Shown here: positions 1-25,324 of the stretch, one piece after another
Layout of the letters: each line of letters opens with the position of its first letter
How positions within the stretch are numbered: the first letter of the stretch is position 1
Assembly (NCBI GenBank): GCA_963794325.1
Contig: CAWCDG010000003.1
Span: 1-64,000 of the forward strand
Length of the DNA: 64,000 nt
Direction of reading: 5' to 3'
Source: an uncultured delta proteobacterium
GTDB lineage: Bacteria; Desulfobacterota; Binatia; Binatales; Binataceae
Translations under genes and position numbers: made by a program
The notes under the pieces: model-generated
What the model was told of the DNA's origin: nothing
Databases searched by the model: none
What the model saw: only the letters and a program-made list of their open reading frames with translations

Positions 1-449
1 GCGATGAACGCCAGGAGCAGGGAAAGGAACGCCAATATTGATAACACGAAGGTAGCGACACGCCCGCTATAGGACAATCCAGTGGAAGTGCGAATATAGA
101 CCATGGCGGCGACAATGAAGGGAGTTATCGCCGCAACAAGAGAAATCGTCGCCGTTGACTTTCTCTCTAACTTCTCCTGCCGAGCTTCCTCCGTTTCATA
201 GACGAGCTTGCATATTGAGAGCTGGTCTTTATCGATGGTGCCTTCAGGCTTAGCCTGCGTTATCGACTGAGGAGAGGGAGGAAGATCCTGATAAGAAGAG
301 AGGGTGTGAGAAAACAGGTGACGTACATTCTTACCCCATTGAGCAATGATCTGTCGTGAGATAGGCCGCCGCTCAGGGGATCCCGCAAAATATTGACGTG
401 CTCGTTCCCCTTCTCCATTTGCCTTCGATCGCTGCGATTCTTCGACCAT
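1..449 (-). CDS. Hypothetical membrane protein, 3'-truncated by the window edge
   Basis: Manual translation from ATG 449: MVEESQRSKANGEG...ETEEARQEKLERKSTATISLVAAITPFIVAAMVY...VATFVLSILAFLSLLLAFI, with two hydrophobic helices. Starts 18 bp after the ATP-grasp stop; absent from the ORF track. Confidence 0.7.
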   Translation of the reverse strand, partial: MVEESQRSKANGEGERARQYFAGSPERRPISRQIIAQWGKNVRHLFSHTLSSYQDLPPSPQSITQAKPEGTIDKDQLSICKLVYETEEARQEKLERKSTATISLVAAITPFIVAAMVYIRTSTGLSYSGRVATFVLSILAFLSLLLAFI

Positions 450-467
450 CTTTGTTGAGTTCGGTTA

Positions 468-1404
468 CTAATAAAACAGTTTCACAAAAGCCTTCCGCAT
501 CGGTAGGCCAAGCGTCTGTTCGAGCCAAGCCCACTCGCCGGTCGGGTTCACCTCGAGGAAGAATAAGTCGCCATCAGGAGATCGAACAAAATCGAATGCT
601 CCATACGATAGACGAAGACCTCGAAGAAGCTGCCGACAGCGATCTCGATTCCCGCAGGAATCTTGACCGACCGATAGCGGAGGTGTTCTCCGGGACGGCG
701 CCAATCAAGAGGCTTTGTATCCGGCGAATCGATTTCAACAGCGAACACTTCTCTACCAATAAATGTTACGCGGATATCTGTTCCTTTTGGAACGCGCTTT
801 TGGAGGAGTGTCGGGCACGCCCGGAGCTGTTCGTCGTCACAAAGTTCGTCAGATTCCACTTGCCTCGTGTACACCGCATATCTTTCGCCGCCCTGAGAAA
901 CCAGACCCTGATAGATTGGCTTGCAAATCACACCATCGCGATAAGTAGATTCAAATTCGCGAAGCAAGTCGGGATCGTTGGTGACTATAGTAGGCGGAAT
1001 CATGAGCCCGAGTTCCTGCGCCAGTCGCAATTGGAACACTTTTCTTTCGGCGATTGGTACGCATCGATCGGGTTAACCCAAAGAATTGAGGGATCTAAAA
1101 TCAGCCCTTCGATTAGATGACGGAATTCACCGGCAACGAACGGTCGTTGTGCCGAATAAATGACTTCCGCGCTGCGCGGCGATATCATTCGTCGATACCA
1201 CACACTTCGGATGCTATTCAGGTCCACGCTCCGTCGGCCGATTGTATATCGACGCACCGTCTGAAGGCCGTTCGTCGAAAACAAGTATTCTGCCGCGTTA
1301 AGTTCTTCGGAATTGATCCGGAAGTAGGGGTGACCGGTTTCCATCAAATGGGCGATCAGGAAATCCGCGGTCAGATCTTCTTTGTTCGTAACTATGAGCA
1401 ACAT
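468..1404 (-). CDS. MvdC/MvdD-family ATP-grasp RiPP (graspetide) ligase, split by two apparent frameshifts (~1060, ~645)
   Basis: Three overlapping ORFs join into one protein: [14 protein letters not shown]...VWYRR...WVNP / [23 protein letters not shown]...KP...[14 protein letters not shown]...DWR / YGAFDF...[14 protein letters not shown]. Confidence 0.88.
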
Positions 1405-1425
1405 CGCGAGGGCTTAACCGGATAC

Positions 1426-1857
1426 CTACGACAAATCTTCCGACCAGTGGGTGACGCCAGGTTCTGCAGAATCCGTCGCGTGCTCTGTCTGATCCACCCC
1501 CTCTCTAGTCTCTGTGAGAGTGGTTTCACCGAACTGCGAAGACCTGAGACCTTCCGTCTGATCCGTCCCTTCCCGAGTTCGCGTCAGGACGGTTTCCCCA
1601 AATGACGAAACAGTGCTTGATTCAGATTGGTCTGTTCCCTCGCGAGTTTTCGTAAGAGCTGTTTCGCCGAATTCGGTTGTAGAAAGAGCATTCTCGCCCT
1701 GGACATAGGCCCGTTGAACAAGGGGCGCGCCAGAGTTGGCGTCTATCCACAACTGACGGTCGTTGTCGTAAATCTCCCAAGATCTCGGAGCCTTTTCGGG
1801 GAGTAACAACTGCTTGTTCTTGAGCACAAACGGCTCGATTTTCCCATCAGGTTGCAT
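1426..1857 (-). CDS. Multicore graspetide precursor (leader plus three TxxTxxxExxD cores)
   Basis: GGGAGG RBS before ATG 1857; leader with EPFVL and YDNDRQLW; cores FGETALTKTREGTDQSE, FGETVLTRTREGTDQTE, FGETTLTETREGVDQTE; directly upstream of the ATP-grasp gene. Confidence 0.88.
   Translation of the reverse strand: MQPDGKIEPFVLKNKQLLLPEKAPRSWEIYDNDRQLWIDANSGAPLVQRAYVQGENALSTTEFGETALTKTREGTDQSESSTVSSFGETVLTRTREGTDQTEGLRSSQFGETTLTETREGVDQTEHATDSAEPGVTHWSEDLS
1483..1671 (-). repeat. Three coding repeats with an exact 69-bp (23-aa) period
   Basis: The FGET Phe codons begin at 1671, 1602 and 1533. Confidence 0.9.
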
Positions 1858-2059
1858 GGCAGTACCTCCCATTCGAGGGCATCATTTTAGGTTATCAAGT
1901 TTCAATCCGAGTCCGAAGGAGCATCCGGCCCAACAAACCGGACTGACAGGCATGATGAATCTGTCGCAACCGACGAATTGGATGGTGGTCTCATTTTGCC
2001 GCCGAATAAGAGGTGAGCGCCAGAGACGAGTATGTAAGGACCGATCTTCGTCAAAATTG

Positions 2060-2297
2060 CTACGGTGTAGTGCCACCCTTCCGGTCCGACCGGACAAAAA
2101 ACTCTGCCACTTGAACGTCGAGGGCTCTCGGCGAGCTTCACGATGGTCGCCAACGAAGGGCTGCGCTTGCCGCGCAGGATCTGCGACAAGTGCCCTTTCG
2201 AGAAATCTGTTTCAAGATAGAAGCGATCCAGCGAGCCGTATTTCTGGATTACGATCTCGCGCAGCCTTCGGCGGAATAGAGCCTCCTCGTTTGCCAC
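2060..2297 (-). CDS. XRE-family HTH regulator with an apparent frameshift at ~2128
   Basis: SKGHLSQILRGKRSPSLATIVKLA; removing one base continues RALDVQVAEFF...TP* to TAG at 2060. Confidence 0.7.
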
Positions 2298-2408
2298 ATC
2301 GCGCGTGTAGCAAAAGCAGGCTGGCCCAGCGTTTGCAATTGCAAACGCTGGATACTGTCAGCGATGAGTGAAACGATCAATGGCCCCGCGACGCGAGGCG
2401 AAGTTTCT

Positions 2409-3389
2409 TCACGAGCTACCATTGCGCCCGTTACGATAAGGGTGTCCGTTGAGATGCCCATTCGTTTCGTGCACTTCGTAGCGTTGAAGCCGATTGTAGA
2501 GGTTCCGTCGGCTCATTCCGAGAAGATTGGATGCGCGAGCCTTATTTCCTCCGGCGAAGGCCAAGGTCCGGAAAATCAACTCGCGTTCGACCTCGCACAT
2601 TGCCGAGCCGACGCGAACCATGAAGTGCGCTTCTGCGGCATGGGAAGGAACGGACTCCATAGGCAGATCTCTTGCCGAGAGCATCGAAGAGGGGCACCTG
2701 ATAACTGCGCGTTGGACGACATTGCGCAACTCTCGAACGTTTCCGGGCCACGCGTGAGCTCGGAGGACATCGAGACAGTCTTGGCCCATGCCTTGGACTT
2801 TTTTCTTGTGTTCCCGATTGAATTCCTGGATGAAGTGCCCGACGAGCAAAGGCAAATCCTCGAGCCGGTCGCGCAGCGGAGGCAGCTCGACGGTGTAAAC
2901 GTTAAGACGGTAGTAGAGGTCCTCGCGCAATCGCCCCTCGCGGATCGCTTGATGCAGCGAACGATTGGATGCGGCGAAGACGCGCACGTCGATCGGCAGG
3001 TCTTTGCTTGCGCCGAGACGGAGAATTCTCTTCTCTTCGAGAACACGGAGCAGTTTGGCCTGCATCTCCGGCCGCATCTCGGTGATCTCGTCGAGCAGAA
3101 GGCTGCCGCCGTTCGCCCGCTCGAAGCATCCCTCGCGGCGGCGATCAGCGCCCGTAAAGGCCCCGCGCTCGTGGCCGAACAGTTCGCTTTCGATCAGGCT
3201 TTCAGGGACTGCCGCGCAATTGATTGCGACGTACGGTCGGTTTTGCCGCGGCGATCTGTCGTGGATCGCGCGTGCGGCCAGCTCTTTCCCCGTACCGCTC
3301 TCGCCAGTGATGATCACCGGCGCGCTCGTAGGAGCGGCTTCTTCAATCAGGCGTATGGCCCGGCGTATCGCTAGCGACTGACCAACCAA
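2409..3389 (-). CDS. Sigma54-dependent enhancer-binding protein (AAA+ plus Fis HTH) with no N-terminal sensor domain
   Basis: GESGTGKE, GAFTGA, LLLDE, REDLYYRL, WPGNVREL and C-terminal GNKARASNLLGMSRRNLY; the protein begins at the AAA domain. Confidence 0.9.
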   Translation of the reverse strand: MVGQSLAIRRAIRLIEEAAPTSAPVIITGESGTGKELAARAIHDRSPRQNRPYVAINCAAVPESLIESELFGHERGAFTGADRRREGCFERANGGSLLLDEITEMRPEMQAKLLRVLEEKRILRLGASKDLPIDVRVFAASNRSLHQAIREGRLREDLYYRLNVYTVELPPLRDRLEDLPLLVGHFIQEFNREHKKKVQGMGQDCLDVLRAHAWPGNVRELRNVVQRAVIRCPSSMLSARDLPMESVPSHAAEAHFMVRVGSAMCEVERELIFRTLAFAGGNKARASNLLGMSRRNLYNRLQRYEVHETNGHLNGHPYRNGRNGSS

Positions 3390-3457
3390 TGTTCGCTCGC
3401 GAGATACAAAATCACAACCCCCCGCCCCGCCGGCACGTTCGCAGAAAATAATCGGGC

Positions 3458-3466
3458 TGTGGATAA
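3458..3466 (-). promoter_or_regulatory. Perfect DnaA box (TTATCCACA)
   Basis: TGTGGATAA on the + strand, upstream of the bEBP gene. Confidence 0.4.
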
Positions 3467-3672
3467 GTTGTCAACAGGTTAATTTTGGTGACATTCTGCT
3501 GTTCACAGAATCTTAATAGTAGCGTCAGCTACTCTTGGCGACGGCTTCCTTTCCGTCCTAACTCGGACTCCAGGGAGCGATATCGTCAAATCATCGTGTT
3601 TCCATTTGATCGCTCAACCTCTCCACCCGCGCCACAGGCGCAATCTAGACTGTTCCGCCGGACGCCGTGCTC

Positions 3673-3763
3673 TGTGTGCAAAGTTTGCACACATGTAGGA
3701 GAGCAAGCCAAATTCCGAAATCGCCACGGACACTTACGATCGTGTGTGCAAAGATTGCACATG
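3673..3763. promoter_or_regulatory. Pair of palindromic operator/UAS sites, TGTGCA-N5-TGCACA
   Basis: TGTGTGCAAAGTTTGCACACA (3673-3693, perfect palindrome) and TGTGTGCAAAGATTGCACATG (3743-3763), 70 bp apart. Confidence 0.7.
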
Positions 3764-3868
3764 CACACATGCATTTTGGCCGTTTGATCGCCGAATCGGT
3801 CCACACCTCCGTCTCGATCAGAACGGCCTGAACATGAACGGTCATGCCTTGCGCATAGAATCCAAAAG

Positions 3869-3884
3869 CGGCACTGCAGTTGCT
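3869..3884 (+). promoter_or_regulatory. Sigma54 -24/-12 promoter upstream of the excisionase-like gene
   Basis: CGGCACTGCAGTTGCT (GG-N10-GC, close to consensus TGGCACG-N4-TTGCW), about 60 bp before ATG 3945. Confidence 0.65.
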
Positions 3885-3944
3885 CAATGACGCGTCGGAT
3901 GAGTGTGTGTGGTTGCGGGGATCTTTCGATGCCGGGGGTCTTCT

Positions 3945-4349
3945 ATGTCGTACCAACCGCCGCACCAAATCACTTCGCGGACAACATTGTCGTCCGCGAC
4001 TATCGAGGAACTCCTCACAGATCCATCGCGTACAAGAGGGTTGGTCCTCGAATCGGTGCCCGAACTTCTAACGCAAGTTGCGTCGCGCGTCGCGTCGCTG
4101 AAAACACTCGAGGGCGCGCTGCTCGCCCTGATGCTAAGTCAGCGGGTCGCGAACGGCGGCGCCAGGAACGTCGGCAGTGCGCTTCTGGCTGCGCCCGAAC
4201 TCGCCAAGCTCTTCTGCGTCCCGGAATCGTGGGTCAGAGAACAGGCTCGCCTCGGCAACCTTCCATCGTTCAAACTCGGCCACTACGTTCGCTTCCGGAT
4301 TGAAGAAGTCGAACGCTACCTCACAGAACGCGCCAATCAAGCCGCTTGA
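3945..4349 (+). CDS. Excisionase-family (HTH_17-like) DNA-binding protein
   Basis: C-terminal LLAAPELAKLFCVPESWVREQARLGNLPSFKLGHYVRFRIEEVERYL; GGGGGT RBS; upstream of the integrase. Confidence 0.75.
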   Translation: MSYQPPHQITSRTTLSSATIEELLTDPSRTRGLVLESVPELLTQVASRVASLKTLEGALLALMLSQRVANGGARNVGSALLAAPELAKLFCVPESWVREQARLGNLPSFKLGHYVRFRIEEVERYLTERANQAA

Positions 4350-4366
4350 CTTCCGCTTCTGTCGTG

Positions 4367-4383
4367 CTATACGCTGCGTATAG
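4367..4383. promoter_or_regulatory. Palindromic operator CTATACGC-T-GCGTATAG, overlapping a likely sigma70 promoter of the XRE gene
   Basis: Perfect 8-1-8 inverted repeat ending just before ATG 4385; TTGACT at 4346. Confidence 0.6.
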
Positions 4384-4384
4384 T

Positions 4385-4576
4385 ATGACTGCGGTGGAAA
4401 TTCGTGCGCTCAGAGAGAAATTGGGCTGGACTCAGATGGCCTTGGCCGAGGCCGTGGGAGTAACCTCGAACACCGTGGCTCGCTGGGAGCGCGGCGAAAT
4501 GGCGATCTCCGAACCGGCCTCCAGACTGCTCCAAAAAATCGCCGCCGAAGAAAAGTTGCGGATTGGGAAGAGGTGA
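4385..4576 (+). CDS. XRE-family HTH regulator
   Basis: IRALREKLGWTQMALAEAVGVTSNTVARWERGE. Confidence 0.85.
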   Translation: MTAVEIRALREKLGWTQMALAEAVGVTSNTVARWERGEMAISEPASRLLQKIAAEEKLRIGKR

Positions 4577-4583
4577 GGGCGCC

Positions 4584-5848
4584 ATGGCTTCAATCAAACG
4601 GTTCCACGAGAGCGGATGTAAGGGCGAGAATTGCGAGTGCGCGTGGCGGCTTGACTACCGGCCTCTCGGAACTAGGGGGCCACGCAAGCGGCTTTATTTC
4701 CCGACCAAGAAGGCGGCTGAGAAGCATCTTGCCCAGACATCCATAAAGGTCACGCGCGGCGAGTATCTCGACCGCAGGCAAGTTCCCACATTCGCCGTCA
4801 CGGCGGGGCAATGGCTCGAGTCCAAGATGGACCGCAGGCCCAGCTACACCGAGGCGCTGCGCGCCCGCCTCAACATTTATCTTCTGCCGCGCTTCGGCCC
4901 TCTGCGTCTCGACCAAGTTTCCGTCGCACCCATCGAAAAGATGCGCGACGACATGCGCGAGCTCGGCCGCTCCACGATTACGATCAACGCGACCATCCGA
5001 ATGATTGGCGGCATTTATCAAATGGCAATCCGCCGCGGCCTCTGCACAGCCAATCCCGCCGACCGCGTCGAACGCGCCTTCGCGGGAGACCGAGAACTCA
5101 ACGGCGGCGAAGATATCCAAGCCGACCAGGCAACCCCTGAGACGGTGCTATCGCCGGAAGAAATCAGCGTCATGCTCGGCAACGCCGATCCCGGCCTCTA
5201 CAAAACTCTCCTCACGTTTCTTGCCGCAACGGGCCTGCGCTCCGGGGAGGCGCTGGCCCTGCGCTGGTCCGATTGCCAGCTCGGCGGACCCGAGCCAAAG
5301 ATTTTTGTCCGGCGCTCCCTCTCCTGGACGCGCGTTCATGGCGAGGACGTGCGCCCGCGCTTCTATCCACCGAAAACAAAATCCGGCCACCGAGCGATCA
5401 CCATCCCGCCGGAACTCGCGACCGTCCTCAAAAAATGGCAGCTACAGTGCCCTCCGGGAGAACACGAGCTTGTCTTCCCAAATCCGAAGGGAAGCCCCTG
5501 AGGCGGTCTGTAGCCCTCCGGCGCGGCCTCTGGCCCGCGCTCCGTAGGGCAGGGCTCCGGCGCGTCAATATCCACAGCCTACGGCATTCGTTCGCATCCG
5601 CCCTGATCGCGGCAGGCAGCCCCGTCACAGAAGTGCAATCCATCCTTGGTCACAGCTCGCCGGCGATCACCCTAAACGTCTACGCGCATTGGTTCCGCGC
5701 GACCAAGACGACGGCTATGGCGAGCGTCGTCCGAAACCTGCTTAAGACCGGACCGAAAAAAAGTGGGCAAAAAGTGGACAAAAATAGAGTGCCGAGCATC
5801 GCGCCCGGCGAGGGGCGCCTCGCCCAGATTTCTCAAAACCCCTTATAA
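4584..5848 (+). CDS. Tyrosine recombinase/integrase with an apparent frameshift at ~5485
   Basis: GLRSGE, PKTK, then (second frame) HSLRH, LGHS and VY catalytic residues; adjacent to the tRNA. Confidence 0.9.
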
Positions 5849-5866
5849 TACTTGGTCTAAAAGAGA

Positions 5867-5950
5867 TGGTGCGAGAGGGGGGACTTGAACCCCCACGCCT
5901 TGCGGCACTGGATCCTAAGTCCAGCGCGTCTGCCATTCCGCCACTCTCGC
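5867..5950 (-). tRNA. tRNA-Leu(TAG)
   Basis: GCGAGAG acceptor stem, CTGGA-CTTAGGA-TCCAG anticodon arm, long variable arm, GGTTCAAGTCC T-arm, CCA end. Confidence 0.97.
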
Positions 5951-6369
5951 GTGAGTTAGAAAATATTGGAAAACCGGGACCGGTTGAAGGGCCGCATTGC
6001 TATTGAGGCGGCTTCTTCACGACGGGGCTCTTGGCAACAGATCGGGGGGTCGGCGCGGACGCGTTCAGCCTTCGCGATAAGCGCGGACAGCTTCCGAAAG
6101 CGTGGGCGACTCGATCAGCAACGTCAACGTTCGGCTTCCGCTCGCCGGGCTCCATAGAGACAAACGTAGGGGTGTTGGATGCCGGGTGGAGAACGGCGGC
6201 CGGCTTGTCCAAAGCCATCACCTTCAGGAGCCGGCATTCAGGTCAAGACTCGCGACAGAGAGTCATGAATCGAAACTTCGCTCGATGACGTACTAGTTGT
6301 GGGTTTGTAAAAACCTAAACATTCATTCATGTCTGATTGTTTCGAAATGTCATCACGCTGAAGTCGACG

Positions 6370-6786
6370 ATGAAAGAGCGACAATTAGGCGACATCTTAA
6401 AAATTCTCCGCGAGAAAAGCGGGCTAACACAGCGCGAATTGGCGCGCAGCGTCAGGGCGACAGCTTCGCACATTGCTTTTATCGAGTCTGGCAGGCGGCG
6501 TCCCTCGCATTCTCTCCTATTCAGGTTGTCGCGTAGTCTGCAGGACAACCAGCAGGAACTATTCCTGGTCGCCTATCCCGAATTGGGACCGCTTACATTG
6601 CCCCACCCACGAACCGATAGGCGCGAGTCCACATGGCGCCGCTTCGTTGCCTGCGCGAGCCGATATTCGGTAACTCCTGAGGAGATGGCAGTTCTGCGGA
6701 AGATATCCCGGTTGAGCAAGATTTCGTCGCCGGATTCATATTTCTGGATTCTGAATTCGATCAGGCAGTCATTCGAAGAAGACTGA
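6370..6786 (+). CDS. XRE-family transcriptional regulator
   Basis: LKILREKSGLTQRELARSV...IAFIESGRRRPS. Confidence 0.8.
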   Translation: MKERQLGDILKILREKSGLTQRELARSVRATASHIAFIESGRRRPSHSLLFRLSRSLQDNQQELFLVAYPELGPLTLPHPRTDRRESTWRRFVACASRYSVTPEEMAVLRKISRLSKISSPDSYFWILNSIRQSFEED

Positions 6787-15278: not shown

Positions 15279-16805
15279 CTACTCGATACCGTACTTCGCG
15301 ATCTTTGCGTAGAGCTTTTTGCGCGAGATCTTCAGCAGCTTGGCGGCGCGCAGTTTGTTGCCGTCGGTCGCCTCGAGTGCGCCGCGGATTAGCGCCTGCT
15401 CTGCATCGGCAAAACTACCTACCGGAACTGCCGGCAGCGTAGATGCGCGTTCGGAGGAATGCGAACCGGCTATTGAGGCGGGCAGATCCTGCAATCGGAT
15501 CACGGGCGTGCGGCTGAACGTGAATGCGCCTTCGATCGCGTTGGCTAGTTCGCGCACGTTGCCCGGCCACGAATACTGGCGCATCGCCTCGAGAGCAGCG
15601 TCCTCGATTCCGGTGACGGGCACCGCTCGCATCTGGCGGGCGTTGAACACCTCGATAAAATGTTCGGCGAGCAGACTGACGTCCTCAAGGCGCTCCCGCA
15701 GCGGCGGTATCTGTATGACTCCGGCCTGGAGACGATAGTAGAGGTCGTTGCGAAGCCGTCCCGCATCGACTGCCTCCTGCGGATCGCGATTGGTCGAGGC
15801 GATGAGGCGCACATCCACCGCGACCTCCTTGGTAGATCCGACCGGACGCACGGTGCGCTCCTGGATAGCGCGCAGCAGTTTGCTCTGCGTATCGGCGCTC
15901 ATCTCGGTGACCTCGTCCAGGAACAGCGTGCCACCTTCCGCCGCGCGGAACAGTCCCAAATATTCGGTGTTCGCGCCGCTGAACGCGCCGCGCTTGTATC
16001 CGAATAGCTCGCTCTCGATGAGGTCCCGCGGTATCGCCGCACAGTTCAGCGCGACGAATGGCGCCGACGGCTGCTGGCTGCATTCATGGATAGCGTGCGC
16101 CACCAGCTCCTTGCCTGTGCCACTCTCGCCGACGATCAGAATCGTGCCGCGCGTCGCGCCCGCAGCTTCCACCCGGTCGTACATCTGACGCATTGCGCCA
16201 CTGGCGCCGACCAGGCCGTGGAACCGGCTGCGCGAATGTTTCGGAATCGCCGCAGCTTCGCGTTCGAGCGCCTGTATTCGCGCTCCCGCGACGGCGGTCT
16301 TCGACTGGAAGTAGGTATCGGCCAGCACGATCATTCGAATGTGACTCAGCTTGTCGAACGACTGGTAGATTCGCGGCATCAGGGGCGGAAACACCGGAAA
16401 TACGGTGGCCGCGCTTTCCTCGAACAGATGCATCGAGACGATCAGTTCCGAGAACGGCACGCCGCGCTCAGCCAGCAGCTCTCCGATTCGCGCGATGTCG
16501 GCGGCGAAGCGGTCCATGTCTTTGTCGAGTAAGTCCCTGAGCGTCGCATCGAGCTCGTTACCGAAGATCTCGACGAACTCGACGCGGCTCAGCGCGCGAG
16601 TATCGGCAAAGTGCAGCACGTAGAGTTGGTACCAATGGTCCAGCACGCGGTCGCGATTCTTCTGGACAGACTCCAGCACCGAACGGAGATCGTCGAGCTC
16701 CTCCTCCCACAACAAGTGAAAGTAACGGGGACGTCCGCTTGGCATTGAAGCGGGAAGAATCGGGGGGACGTCGGGCTTCATCTGGACTGGCTCGAAAGGC
16801 GTCAC
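15279..16805 (-). CDS. Sigma54 enhancer-binding protein with an N-terminal globin-like (RsbR-N/protoglobin-like) domain
   Basis: GESGTGKE, GAFSGA, WPGNVREL, Fis HTH; helical N-terminus RVLDHWYQLY...IGELLAERGVPF. Confidence 0.88.
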   Translation of the reverse strand: MTPFEPVQMKPDVPPILPASMPSGRPRYFHLLWEEELDDLRSVLESVQKNRDRVLDHWYQLYVLHFADTRALSRVEFVEIFGNELDATLRDLLDKDMDRFAADIARIGELLAERGVPFSELIVSMHLFEESAATVFPVFPPLMPRIYQSFDKLSHIRMIVLADTYFQSKTAVAGARIQALEREAAAIPKHSRSRFHGLVGASGAMRQMYDRVEAAGATRGTILIVGESGTGKELVAHAIHECSQQPSAPFVALNCAAIPRDLIESELFGYKRGAFSGANTEYLGLFRAAEGGTLFLDEVTEMSADTQSKLLRAIQERTVRPVGSTKEVAVDVRLIASTNRDPQEAVDAGRLRNDLYYRLQAGVIQIPPLRERLEDVSLLAEHFIEVFNARQMRAVPVTGIEDAALEAMRQYSWPGNVRELANAIEGAFTFSRTPVIRLQDLPASIAGSHSSERASTLPAVPVGSFADAEQALIRGALEATDGNKLRAAKLLKISRKKLYAKIAKYGIE

Positions 16806-25171: not shown

Positions 25172-25324
25172 GAACCAAGTCAGGGCAGGGAAGGGGAAAT
25201 CACTTTATTGAATGTGAAACCCGCGGTGGGTTTCACGCTTCCTTCGGCAGGGGTGACCCCTGGACCCGGTGATAAGAAATCGCGAAATGTCGAGGACGAC
25301 CTTTCGCTCTCAGGTCCTGAGGAA

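Follow-up and report, generated by a model that had tools for sequence, protein, structure and literature searches.

A sensor-less enhancer-binding protein and a sigma-54 promoter as the probable switch of the recombination operon in an integrative conjugative element of Candidatus Binataceae

The window analysed here is the 64 kb with which contig C3 of G000 begins, G000 being a metagenome-assembled genome (MAG) of 10 contigs and 4.45 Mb with a completeness of 85%, for which named homologues suggest a place in Candidatus Binataceae. The leftmost part of the window contains one end of an integrative conjugative element (ICE), and the arrangement of genes and regulatory motifs found there suggests that the recombination operon of this ICE is probably fired by its own dedicated bacterial enhancer-binding protein (bEBP), a sensor-less one, acting through a sigma-54 promoter. 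Two familiar kinds of system would thereby be combined, namely the recombination module of an ICE and a pair of sigma-54 promoter and bEBP. From left to right, positions 2060-5950 hold XRE2 (a small gene of the XRE type), the bEBP gene, an intergenic region of 555 bp, an excisionase-like HTH_17 gene, an XRE gene, the integrase gene and a tRNA-Leu gene; since the window starts at the contig end, the ICE is cut there. The components of the putative switch and of the operon that it faces, including two palindromes regarded as candidate upstream activating sequences (UAS), are as follows:

2409-3389, minus strand: bEBP gene, 326 aa, with an AAA+ sigma-54 interaction domain, a lid, a Fis-type HTH and a conserved C-terminal tail
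3675-3691, no strand assigned: TGTGCAAAGTTTGCACA, the distal palindrome (UAS1), with its centre about 212 bp ahead of the predicted start
3745-3761, no strand assigned: TGTGCAAAGATTGCACA, the proximal palindrome (UAS2), with its centre about 142 bp ahead of the predicted start
3785-3797, no strand assigned: block TGATCGCCGAATC, conserved in the alignment, between UAS2 and the promoter
3869-3884, plus strand: predicted sigma-54 promoter, CGGCACTGCAGTTGCT; its GG occupies 3870-3871 and its GC 3882-3883, and the predicted start is near 3895
3945-4349, plus strand: HTH_17 gene (excisionase-like), 134 aa, N-terminal helical domain and C-terminal winged helix
4385-4576, plus strand: XRE-family HTH protein, 63 aa (Pfam HTH_3, 46 bits)
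4584-5848, plus strand: tyrosine integrase (Phage_int_M and Phage_integrase), two open reading frames (ORFs) in different frames with a break near 5483
5867-5950, minus strand: tRNA-Leu(tag), found by ARAGORN and Rfam, directly after the integrase gene; its 3' 56 nt (5870-5925) are the att repeat

The bEBP is matched in Pfam by Sigma54_activat (PF00158, 231 bits), AAA_lid_14 and HTH_8 (PF02954, 45.5 bits at residues 266-304), and its translation contains the GAFTGA motif as well as Walker A (GESGTGKE) and Walker B (LLLDEI). No N-terminal regulatory domain of the receiver, GAF, PAS or V4R type is detected by Pfam, the AAA+ domain beginning at residue 1, and the entire stop-to-stop frame amounts to 353 aa, with 27 in-frame codons before the upstream stop. 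The first-pass annotation had described an activator with only an AAA+ domain (GAFTGA) and a Fis-type HTH, divergent from an excisionase-like gene that is followed by XRE and integrase genes; the former statement is borne out by Pfam, by the translation and by the length of the stop-to-stop frame, the latter by gene calls and Pfam. Soil metagenomes contain many homologues equal to it in length (324-330 aa), with about 61-94% identity; they make up more than 70 of the 120 matches listed, and because they are so numerous the short bEBP can be considered a stable architecture. In the short-bEBP relatives the open frames span 331-335 aa and the upstream stop lies 5-9 codons from the start, and on account of this and of the homologues of equal length, a truncated pseudogene was rejected as an explanation of the bEBP. 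The few taxon-named homologues among the matches listed bear the label Binataceae, and the next relatives among these matches are receiver-bearing NtrC-type proteins of 454-472 aa from the same bacteria, with 59-63% identity; a response regulator of this kind in the host, having lost its receiver, probably gave rise to the short bEBP. The HTH (GGNKxRAxxxLGxxRRxxY) is conserved throughout the short-activator loci compared, including the variant modules described below. It is followed by a conserved tail at 2409-2470, (H)ETNGHxNGxxYRNGRNG, of which YRNGRNG is exact in 11 of the 21 short bEBPs compared, while 7 others have something close to it; bEBPs do not usually carry a tail of this kind, which may be a signal for degradation or for binding of a partner. 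A second, longer bEBP (15282-16214, minus strand, 519-aa open frame), 45% identical to the first, is encoded in the core-genome part of the window, and the genome has about 20 bEBP genes in total.

For the regulatory region and the gene order, two sets of related loci were compared. The bEBP-seeded set contains 20 of about 40 short-frame activator loci in the family, namely those with the best scores once genomes flagged as unpublished had been set aside, with neighbouring genes identified by tblastn. The HTH_17-seeded set results from a scan with an 11-sequence alignment over 185,579 genomes, one per species, which returned 71 loci, comprising 25 full-length homologues (at least 64% identity), 34 generic C-terminal matches, 10 intermediate loci and 2 without a tblastn match. 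When the two sets had been pooled and 10 exact duplicates discarded, 29 distinct upstream regions remained, the window and 28 relatives; three loci, L055/L097 (no motif, and a gene lacking its first 43 residues), L096 (contig end) and L098 (truncated match), were omitted. L074, apparently from a genome flagged as unpublished, is included in the count of 29, and without it the promoter count given below becomes 27/28.

The predicted promoter, CGGCAC-TGCAG-TTGCT at 3869-3884, was compared with TGGCAC-N5-TTGCW and has its GG and GC 10 nt apart; the -24/-12 match GGCACTGCAGTTGC at 3870-3883 on the plus strand is the only one within the 64-kb window. Of the 29 distinct regions, 28 retain the pattern GG[CT]A[CT]-N5-[TC]TGC[ATC] at a distance of 72-80 bp from the ATG, and the 5-nt spacer takes at least 10 different forms, so that selection must act on the -24 and -12 elements themselves. 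Accordingly, the alignment displays islands of conservation exactly at the promoter and the palindromes, while the flanks are variable. No sigma-70-like site was found by a simple promoter scan upstream of the operon on the same strand. Most of the leader of about 50 nt preceding the ATG of HTH_17 (3896-3944) is conserved as well, and an Rfam search of positions 1-6200 for an RNA element in this leader gave the tRNA only. A start of HTH_17 at GTG 3903 was ruled out, since 1-nt length differences in relatives break the frame. The sigma factor itself is available, as rpoN is found on contig C4 of G000 (Sigma54_DBD, 214.5 bits), in 145 of 151 genomes of the family and in all 95 of the high-quality ones.

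Upstream of the promoter, the two palindromes can be summarised as TGTGCAAAG(T/A)TTGCACA at 3675 and 3745. The motif TGTGCA-N5-TGCACA is seen twice in the window, with 0.00 expected in window shuffles, and is thus significant by itself. Allowing at most one mismatch, the core GTGCA-N5-TGCAC occupies the distal position in 25 and the proximal position in 24 of the 29 regions, and at least one of them in 27, with no match elsewhere within these 330-nt upstream regions (0.009 per region in shuffles). Throughout the 4.45 Mb of G000 the strict palindrome occurs at two sites only, both at the module, and among 166 relaxed sigma-54-like motifs in this genome it is only the one at the module that has a relaxed palindrome 40-320 bp upstream. 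G107, a single contig of 4.58 Mb that carries a closely similar integrase, has the palindrome/sigma-54 pair once within 87 kb around its element. A single pair in G000 and in the G107 region therefore makes the bEBP look dedicated, with one target. The TGATCGCCGAATC block between UAS2 and the promoter is a possible site for a bending protein or a repressor.

The order of the genes is conserved as well. The full arrangement, with the bEBP divergent from HTH_17, XRE and integrase genes, is present in 12 of the 20 bEBP-seeded loci. Among the 25 loci with a full-length HTH_17 homologue, the sigma-54 motif lies 72-78 bp before the ATG in 24 (the exception being L083), a divergent bEBP or fragments of one are found in 22 (17 of intact length, 5 broken), and XRE and integrase genes follow downstream in all 25; of the three loci in which no bEBP was seen, two are at contig ends. 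By contrast, the 34 generic HTH_17 loci, mostly from Actinomycetota and Acidobacteriota, have neither a sigma-54 motif nor a palindrome in the 450 nt upstream, and the ten intermediate loci are mixed, with the motif in 3. The integrases with which the module is combined are 40-98% identical to that of the window, indicating module exchange. The proposals of the first-pass annotation hold up well in these comparisons, and each feature that it named is found within 2 bp of its position: the near-consensus promoter that it placed at 3869 is there and is kept in nearly all related regions, its palindromes at 3673 and 3743 correspond to those at 3675 and 3745 (the earlier positions include a further TG), the bEBP-xis-int synteny that it wished to see checked across genomes is found in 12/20 and 22/25 loci, and its view that the bEBP, the upstream palindromes and a sigma-54 promoter facing an xis-like operon form a unit is supported by conservation across related elements and by the uniqueness of the pair in G000.

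In one genome (G095, C1:1789715-1818689) two complete modules, L049 and L051, are located 25 kb apart in the same orientation beside a tRNA-Leu. Their integrases share 97% and 48% identity with that of the window, and the arrangement looks like tandem accretion of two elements. A wider reach of the module was considered with L104, labelled Thermodesulfobacteriota, where a short bEBP, an HTH_17 gene and an integrase occur at 47-49% identity; this locus was not counted, no sigma-54 motif or palindrome having been seen in it.

The nature of the element is clearest in G107, where 56-bp tRNA-Leu repeats with one mismatch bound an element of 81.4 kb. Its integrase, 98.7% identical to that of the window over the first 305 residues, abuts the tRNA-Leu, and the activator module is located at the integrase end. 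The cargo includes VirB8, CagX/VirB9, TrbI/VirB10, a T2SSE ATPase (VirB11-type), VirB4, TrbL/VirB6, a coupling protein (T4SS-DNA_transf), ArdC and SSB, and the combination of att repeats, integrase and Trb/VirB transfer genes therefore identifies the element as an ICE. The opposite end of the ICE of G000 is on contig C5, where an att copy at 6582-6637 (2/56 mismatches) adjoins VirB8 (98.6% identical), VirB9, VirB10 and a gene for the coupling protein that is truncated at the contig end; past the tRNA, G000 and G107 share a syntenic chromosomal flank. In a by-eye comparison with the C5 flank, no empty attB or attP junction was seen among the loose ends of soil contigs at the tRNA. A prophage was also considered and rejected, as the search for HTH_17 relatives in IMG/VR viral contigs gave 35 pattern matches, none of which was confirmed.

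Several observations weigh against a sigma-54 switch of the recombination operon. Within the window alone the promoter match is within chance (0.67 expected, at least one in 44 of 100 shuffles), and the promoter is accepted as real because it is conserved in relatives, not by window statistics. One relative (L051/L083) has a mutated -12 element, TTGG, the five bEBPs mentioned above are broken, and L079 is without a bEBP within 5 kb. Moreover, the compared loci are kin of one bacterial family, such that the counts describe conservation and not independent trials. Portions of the HTH_17, XRE and integrase genes of close relatives are represented among soil metatranscriptome contigs from two studies, which is weakly suggestive of expression of the operon in soil, but none of these contigs extends over the bEBP or the promoter and neither a start site nor a strand is readable. 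No public sequencing run contained half or more of the sequence words of the stretch searched. The placement of an xis-like gene and int in one operon leaves integration without excision unexplained; because the integrase shares the operon, the switch would control recombination as a whole and not directionality alone. The HTH_17 protein is atypical for an excisionase, with 134 aa, an N-terminal domain of 80 aa and a score below the ‘excise’ cut-off, and could be a transcription factor. Lastly, in addition to the integrase, frames are shifted in XRE2, in the ATP-grasp gene (twice) and in VirB9 (split on C5), which points either to decay of this copy of the ICE or to poor polishing of the contig ends.

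The latter point leads to the alternative that survives best, although it concerns this copy only and is compatible with a sigma-54 switch in the family: the module in G000 could be a relic in a decaying ICE copy in which nothing is moved, which we consider possible but on the doubtful side. Nucleotide alignments with G107 are at 80-84% identity, where counts of 1-nt indels are uninformative, and the comparison was therefore made at the protein level. In this comparison 7/7 core genes to the right of the tRNA are full-length and in one frame, against the frameshifts within the ICE, and the two differences between the att copies of G000 likewise fit a decaying element. However, the bEBP, HTH_17, XRE and all cis elements of the window are intact, and the integrase break near 5483 is a single missing homopolymer base, one C fewer in a run of C than in G107 (DNA alignment with L046). 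Soil DNA contigs over this break have one extra base in three out of three cases, and these near-identical contigs, one of them with 18 differences over 1333 nt, keep the integrase frame intact. In addition, all of the frameshifts are near contig ends of a MAG of 10 contigs, where consensus errors are common.

A second alternative accepts the circuit as real but takes the HTH_17 protein as a transcription regulator of the BldC/AlpA-like kind, which times the integrase or other ICE genes and not excision. The two-domain protein scores 27.7 bits with Pfam HTH_17 (cut-off 27) and 21.9 with the NCBIfam model ‘excise’, TIGR01764 (cut-off 28.8). Its AlphaFold2 model has a predicted local distance difference test (pLDDT) score of 80.8 and shows a helical N-terminal part, which includes a helix of 35 residues, and a winged helix at the C-terminus. 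Foldseek gave no whole-chain match to this model at E<0.001 and local matches at E>0.05, the best of which, for the C-terminal domain, is BldC, a developmental regulator (probability 1.00, TM 0.73 over 51 columns). Regulation beyond recombination is also suggested by L061 12781-13708 (G113), where, next to a bEBP 57% identical to that of the window, the same kind of pair, a palindrome and GGCAC-N5-TTGCA, stands 150 bp before an orphan VirB8 and not before xis/int, so that in some elements the activator may drive transfer genes. On the other hand, the excisionase RdfS (8dgl_B, probability 0.96) is likewise a local fold match of the C-terminal domain, the HTH_17 gene is directly upstream of the integrase in 25/25 loci, and the ICE of G107 has no second palindrome/sigma-54 site through which other genes could be reached. 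Homologues are labelled ‘excisionase family DNA binding protein’ in one source. Support for an excisionase is thus modest: the fold class would suit a recombination directionality factor, and it is from the position of the gene that we infer such a function. A purely regulatory role appears unlikely.

According to a third alternative, the palindromes are operators of the XRE or HTH_17 proteins of the element, serving autoregulation or immunity, while the bEBP binds elsewhere or without a specific site. Small HTH proteins of mobile elements typically bind 17-bp palindromes, and the module has two genes of the XRE type. The loci in which the bEBP is found without these partners are therefore instructive. 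A variant module is present in 3 more of the 20 bEBP-seeded loci (L048, L054 and L056), with another HTH_17 protein of 112-185 aa and no XRE; the integrase of L048 and L054 is of another family (454-457 aa), while L056 stops at a contig end. The HTH_17 protein is 35% identical to that of the window in L048 and 20% in L054, and the putative recognition region differs. Still, in L047, L048, L054 and L059-L062, all of which have a short bEBP, no XRE gene and not the HTH_17-XRE-integrase set of the window, the GGCAC-N5-TTGC motif close to the bEBP is preceded at 80-160 bp by a palindrome, with other or degraded target genes in L047 and L059-L062; under the same pattern, L056 has the sigma-54 motif only and no palindrome. 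Judged from these loci, the palindrome travels with the bEBP, even without XRE and with another type of integrase. Furthermore, the distance between palindrome and -24 element (80-200 bp) suits an enhancer and not an operator overlapping the promoter, and there is no other conserved palindrome upstream of the promoter to which the bEBP could bind, which renders the operator reading improbable. That promoter and palindromes are chance matches beside an ordinary host regulator can practically be dismissed, for although chance alone should yield about one match to GGCAC-N5-TTGC in 64 kb, the motifs are positionally kept with varying spacers in 28/29 regions and lacking from the 34 outgroup loci, the strict palindrome is unique to the module in G000, and the bEBP lies inside an att-bounded element.

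For a dedicated bEBP that fires the recombination operon through sigma-54, the question arises how the activator itself is controlled. As a sensor-less bEBP should be active once it is made, control would lie at its promoter or with an inhibitor. The surroundings of the bEBP gene have the following features:

3445-3474, minus strand: candidate sigma-70-type promoter of the bEBP gene, TTGACA-18-TATTTT, 10/12 positions in the promoter scan
3458-3466, minus strand: perfect DnaA-box 9-mer, TTATCCACA, in the spacer of the candidate bEBP promoter
3493-3511, no strand assigned: inverted repeat ATTCTG-N7-CAGAAT / TGTT(C/A)ACA just upstream of the -35 element of the bEBP gene, partly conserved, a candidate operator
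2060-2297, minus strand: XRE2, small XRE-type gene (Pfam HTH_3) downstream of the bEBP gene, frameshifted in the window

The window has a single copy of the DnaA-box 9-mer, where 0.07 would be expected, and the block formed by the candidate bEBP promoter with the DnaA box is conserved in most relatives in the alignment; by virtue of this box the switch may be tied to DnaA or to the replication state. The frame of XRE2 is broken near residue 56 and continues in another frame to the stop at 2060, whereas seven relatives have an intact XRE2 of 70-77 aa. A further protein is encoded in the ICE of G107 (L064 3070-4218), where 383 aa combine HTH_3 with Peptidase_M78 in an ImmA/IrrE-like manner, and this protein might add a level of repressor/anti-repressor control over the activator.

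Taken together, the following course of events can be proposed. The bEBP would be transcribed, probably from the sigma-70-type promoter guarded by the operator-like sequences, and would be active whenever it is made, binding to both 17-bp palindromes. Hexamers of the bEBP would then contact sigma-54 RNA polymerase at GGCAC-N5-TTGCT and open the promoter using ATP, upon which the HTH_17-XRE-integrase operon would be transcribed as one. The products of the operon would recombine the 56-bp att repeats and thus excise the ICE for Trb/VirB transfer. In general, sigma-54 promoters need remodelling by an ATP-driven activator, which results in near-zero leakiness and an all-or-none response. Because such promoters are silent without their activator, the proposed switch would have a tight off state. 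More tentatively, and with somewhat less confidence than caution, we envisage a family of ICEs in Binataceae with sigma-54 as the master switch, in which a captured NtrC regulator stripped of its receiver acts as the activator and excision would be decided at the activator promoter through a link to DnaA or a repressor.

Other parts of the window are not directly connected with the switch. Positions 1-1872 on the minus strand hold a graspetide-like cluster for a ribosomally synthesized and post-translationally modified peptide (RiPP) as cargo of the ICE, with two features:

1426-1872, minus strand: RiPP precursor, 148 aa, with three repeats FGETxLTxTREGxDQ(S/T)E
548-1404, minus strand: MvdD-type ATP-grasp gene, distributed over three reading frames; a further ORF runs past the contig start

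To the right of the ICE, the region 25188-25319 contains a repeat of about 130 nt with more than 25 matches in the G107 genome at 82-97% identity, which is probably a dispersed repeat or a miniature mobile element.

If the proposed control by a dedicated bEBP is correct, this would be the first enhancer-dependent control of the recombination module of a mobile element and a new wiring solution for the decision of such an element to move. It would predict that the host range of the ICE is limited to rpoN-bearing bacteria, and receiver loss would represent a route by which a mobile element can domesticate a two-component regulator of its host. The module would also offer a compact orthogonal set of activator, enhancer and promoter from an uncultured lineage, as well as an entry point to the biology of Binataceae, a lineage without genetics so far.

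Among known activators, PspF of E. coli consists of the AAA+ domain and a Fis-type HTH only, is encoded divergently from its sigma-54 target, acts from upstream sites and has PspA as its partner. Like PspF, the bEBP described here has no regulatory domain, is divergent from its presumed target and has putative upstream sites. It differs in that it is not an orthologue of PspF by TIGR02974 (267.4 bits, cut-off 443.55), scores 222 with NF008622 (cut-off 529) and reaches none of the NCBIfam equivalog cut-offs; in addition, no PspA-like partner is seen in the module, and the presumed target is a recombination operon of a mobile element.

To our knowledge, the switches described for ICEs and prophages use de-repression or activation of sigma-70 promoters. 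The first-pass annotation knew of no integrative element switched by sigma-54, and literature searches, which leave subscription journals largely uncovered, likewise yielded no account of sigma-54/bEBP control of an excisionase or integrase gene. In the accessible portions of the respective texts, a 2017 ICE review names RpoN in its reference list only (PMC5812530), and a paper on Gifsy-1 and RtcR deals with effects of the prophage on a host sigma-54 operon and not with the converse.

Similar to CTnDOT of Bacteroides, the module would have an ICE-encoded regulator at the head of a cascade leading to excision genes. The regulator of CTnDOT, RteB, is presumably a member of the NtrC family. In the available text on CTnDOT, the cascade runs from RteA/RteB via RteC to xis2c-xis2d-orf3-exc, with RteB activating rteC, and the passages at hand make no mention of sigma factors (PMC3809561), while in those of a second paper sigma appears only as a sigma-70 reference gene (PMC1976400). 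Unlike the two-component regulator RteB, the bEBP is without a receiver and faces the xis-like/int operon directly. The ICEMlSymR7A of Mesorhizobium, in which quorum sensing leads to FseA and further to RdfS, resembles the system described here, insofar as its abstracts tell, in that a dedicated activator governs a directionality factor (a putative one here), and in these abstracts the activation is not described as sigma-54 dependent. In contrast to the operon of the window, RdfS is small and single-domain, and the integrase is outside its operon. Repressor-based switches, such as ImmR/ImmA at Pxis of ICEBs1 and SetR-SetCD of SXT, act by de-repression of sigma-70 promoters. With these elements the module shares the presence of XRE/CI-type proteins beside the integrase, and the ICE of G107 has the ImmA/IrrE-like protein; it is set apart from both by the predicted enhancer-dependent sigma-54 promoter, which here is placed directly before the operon.

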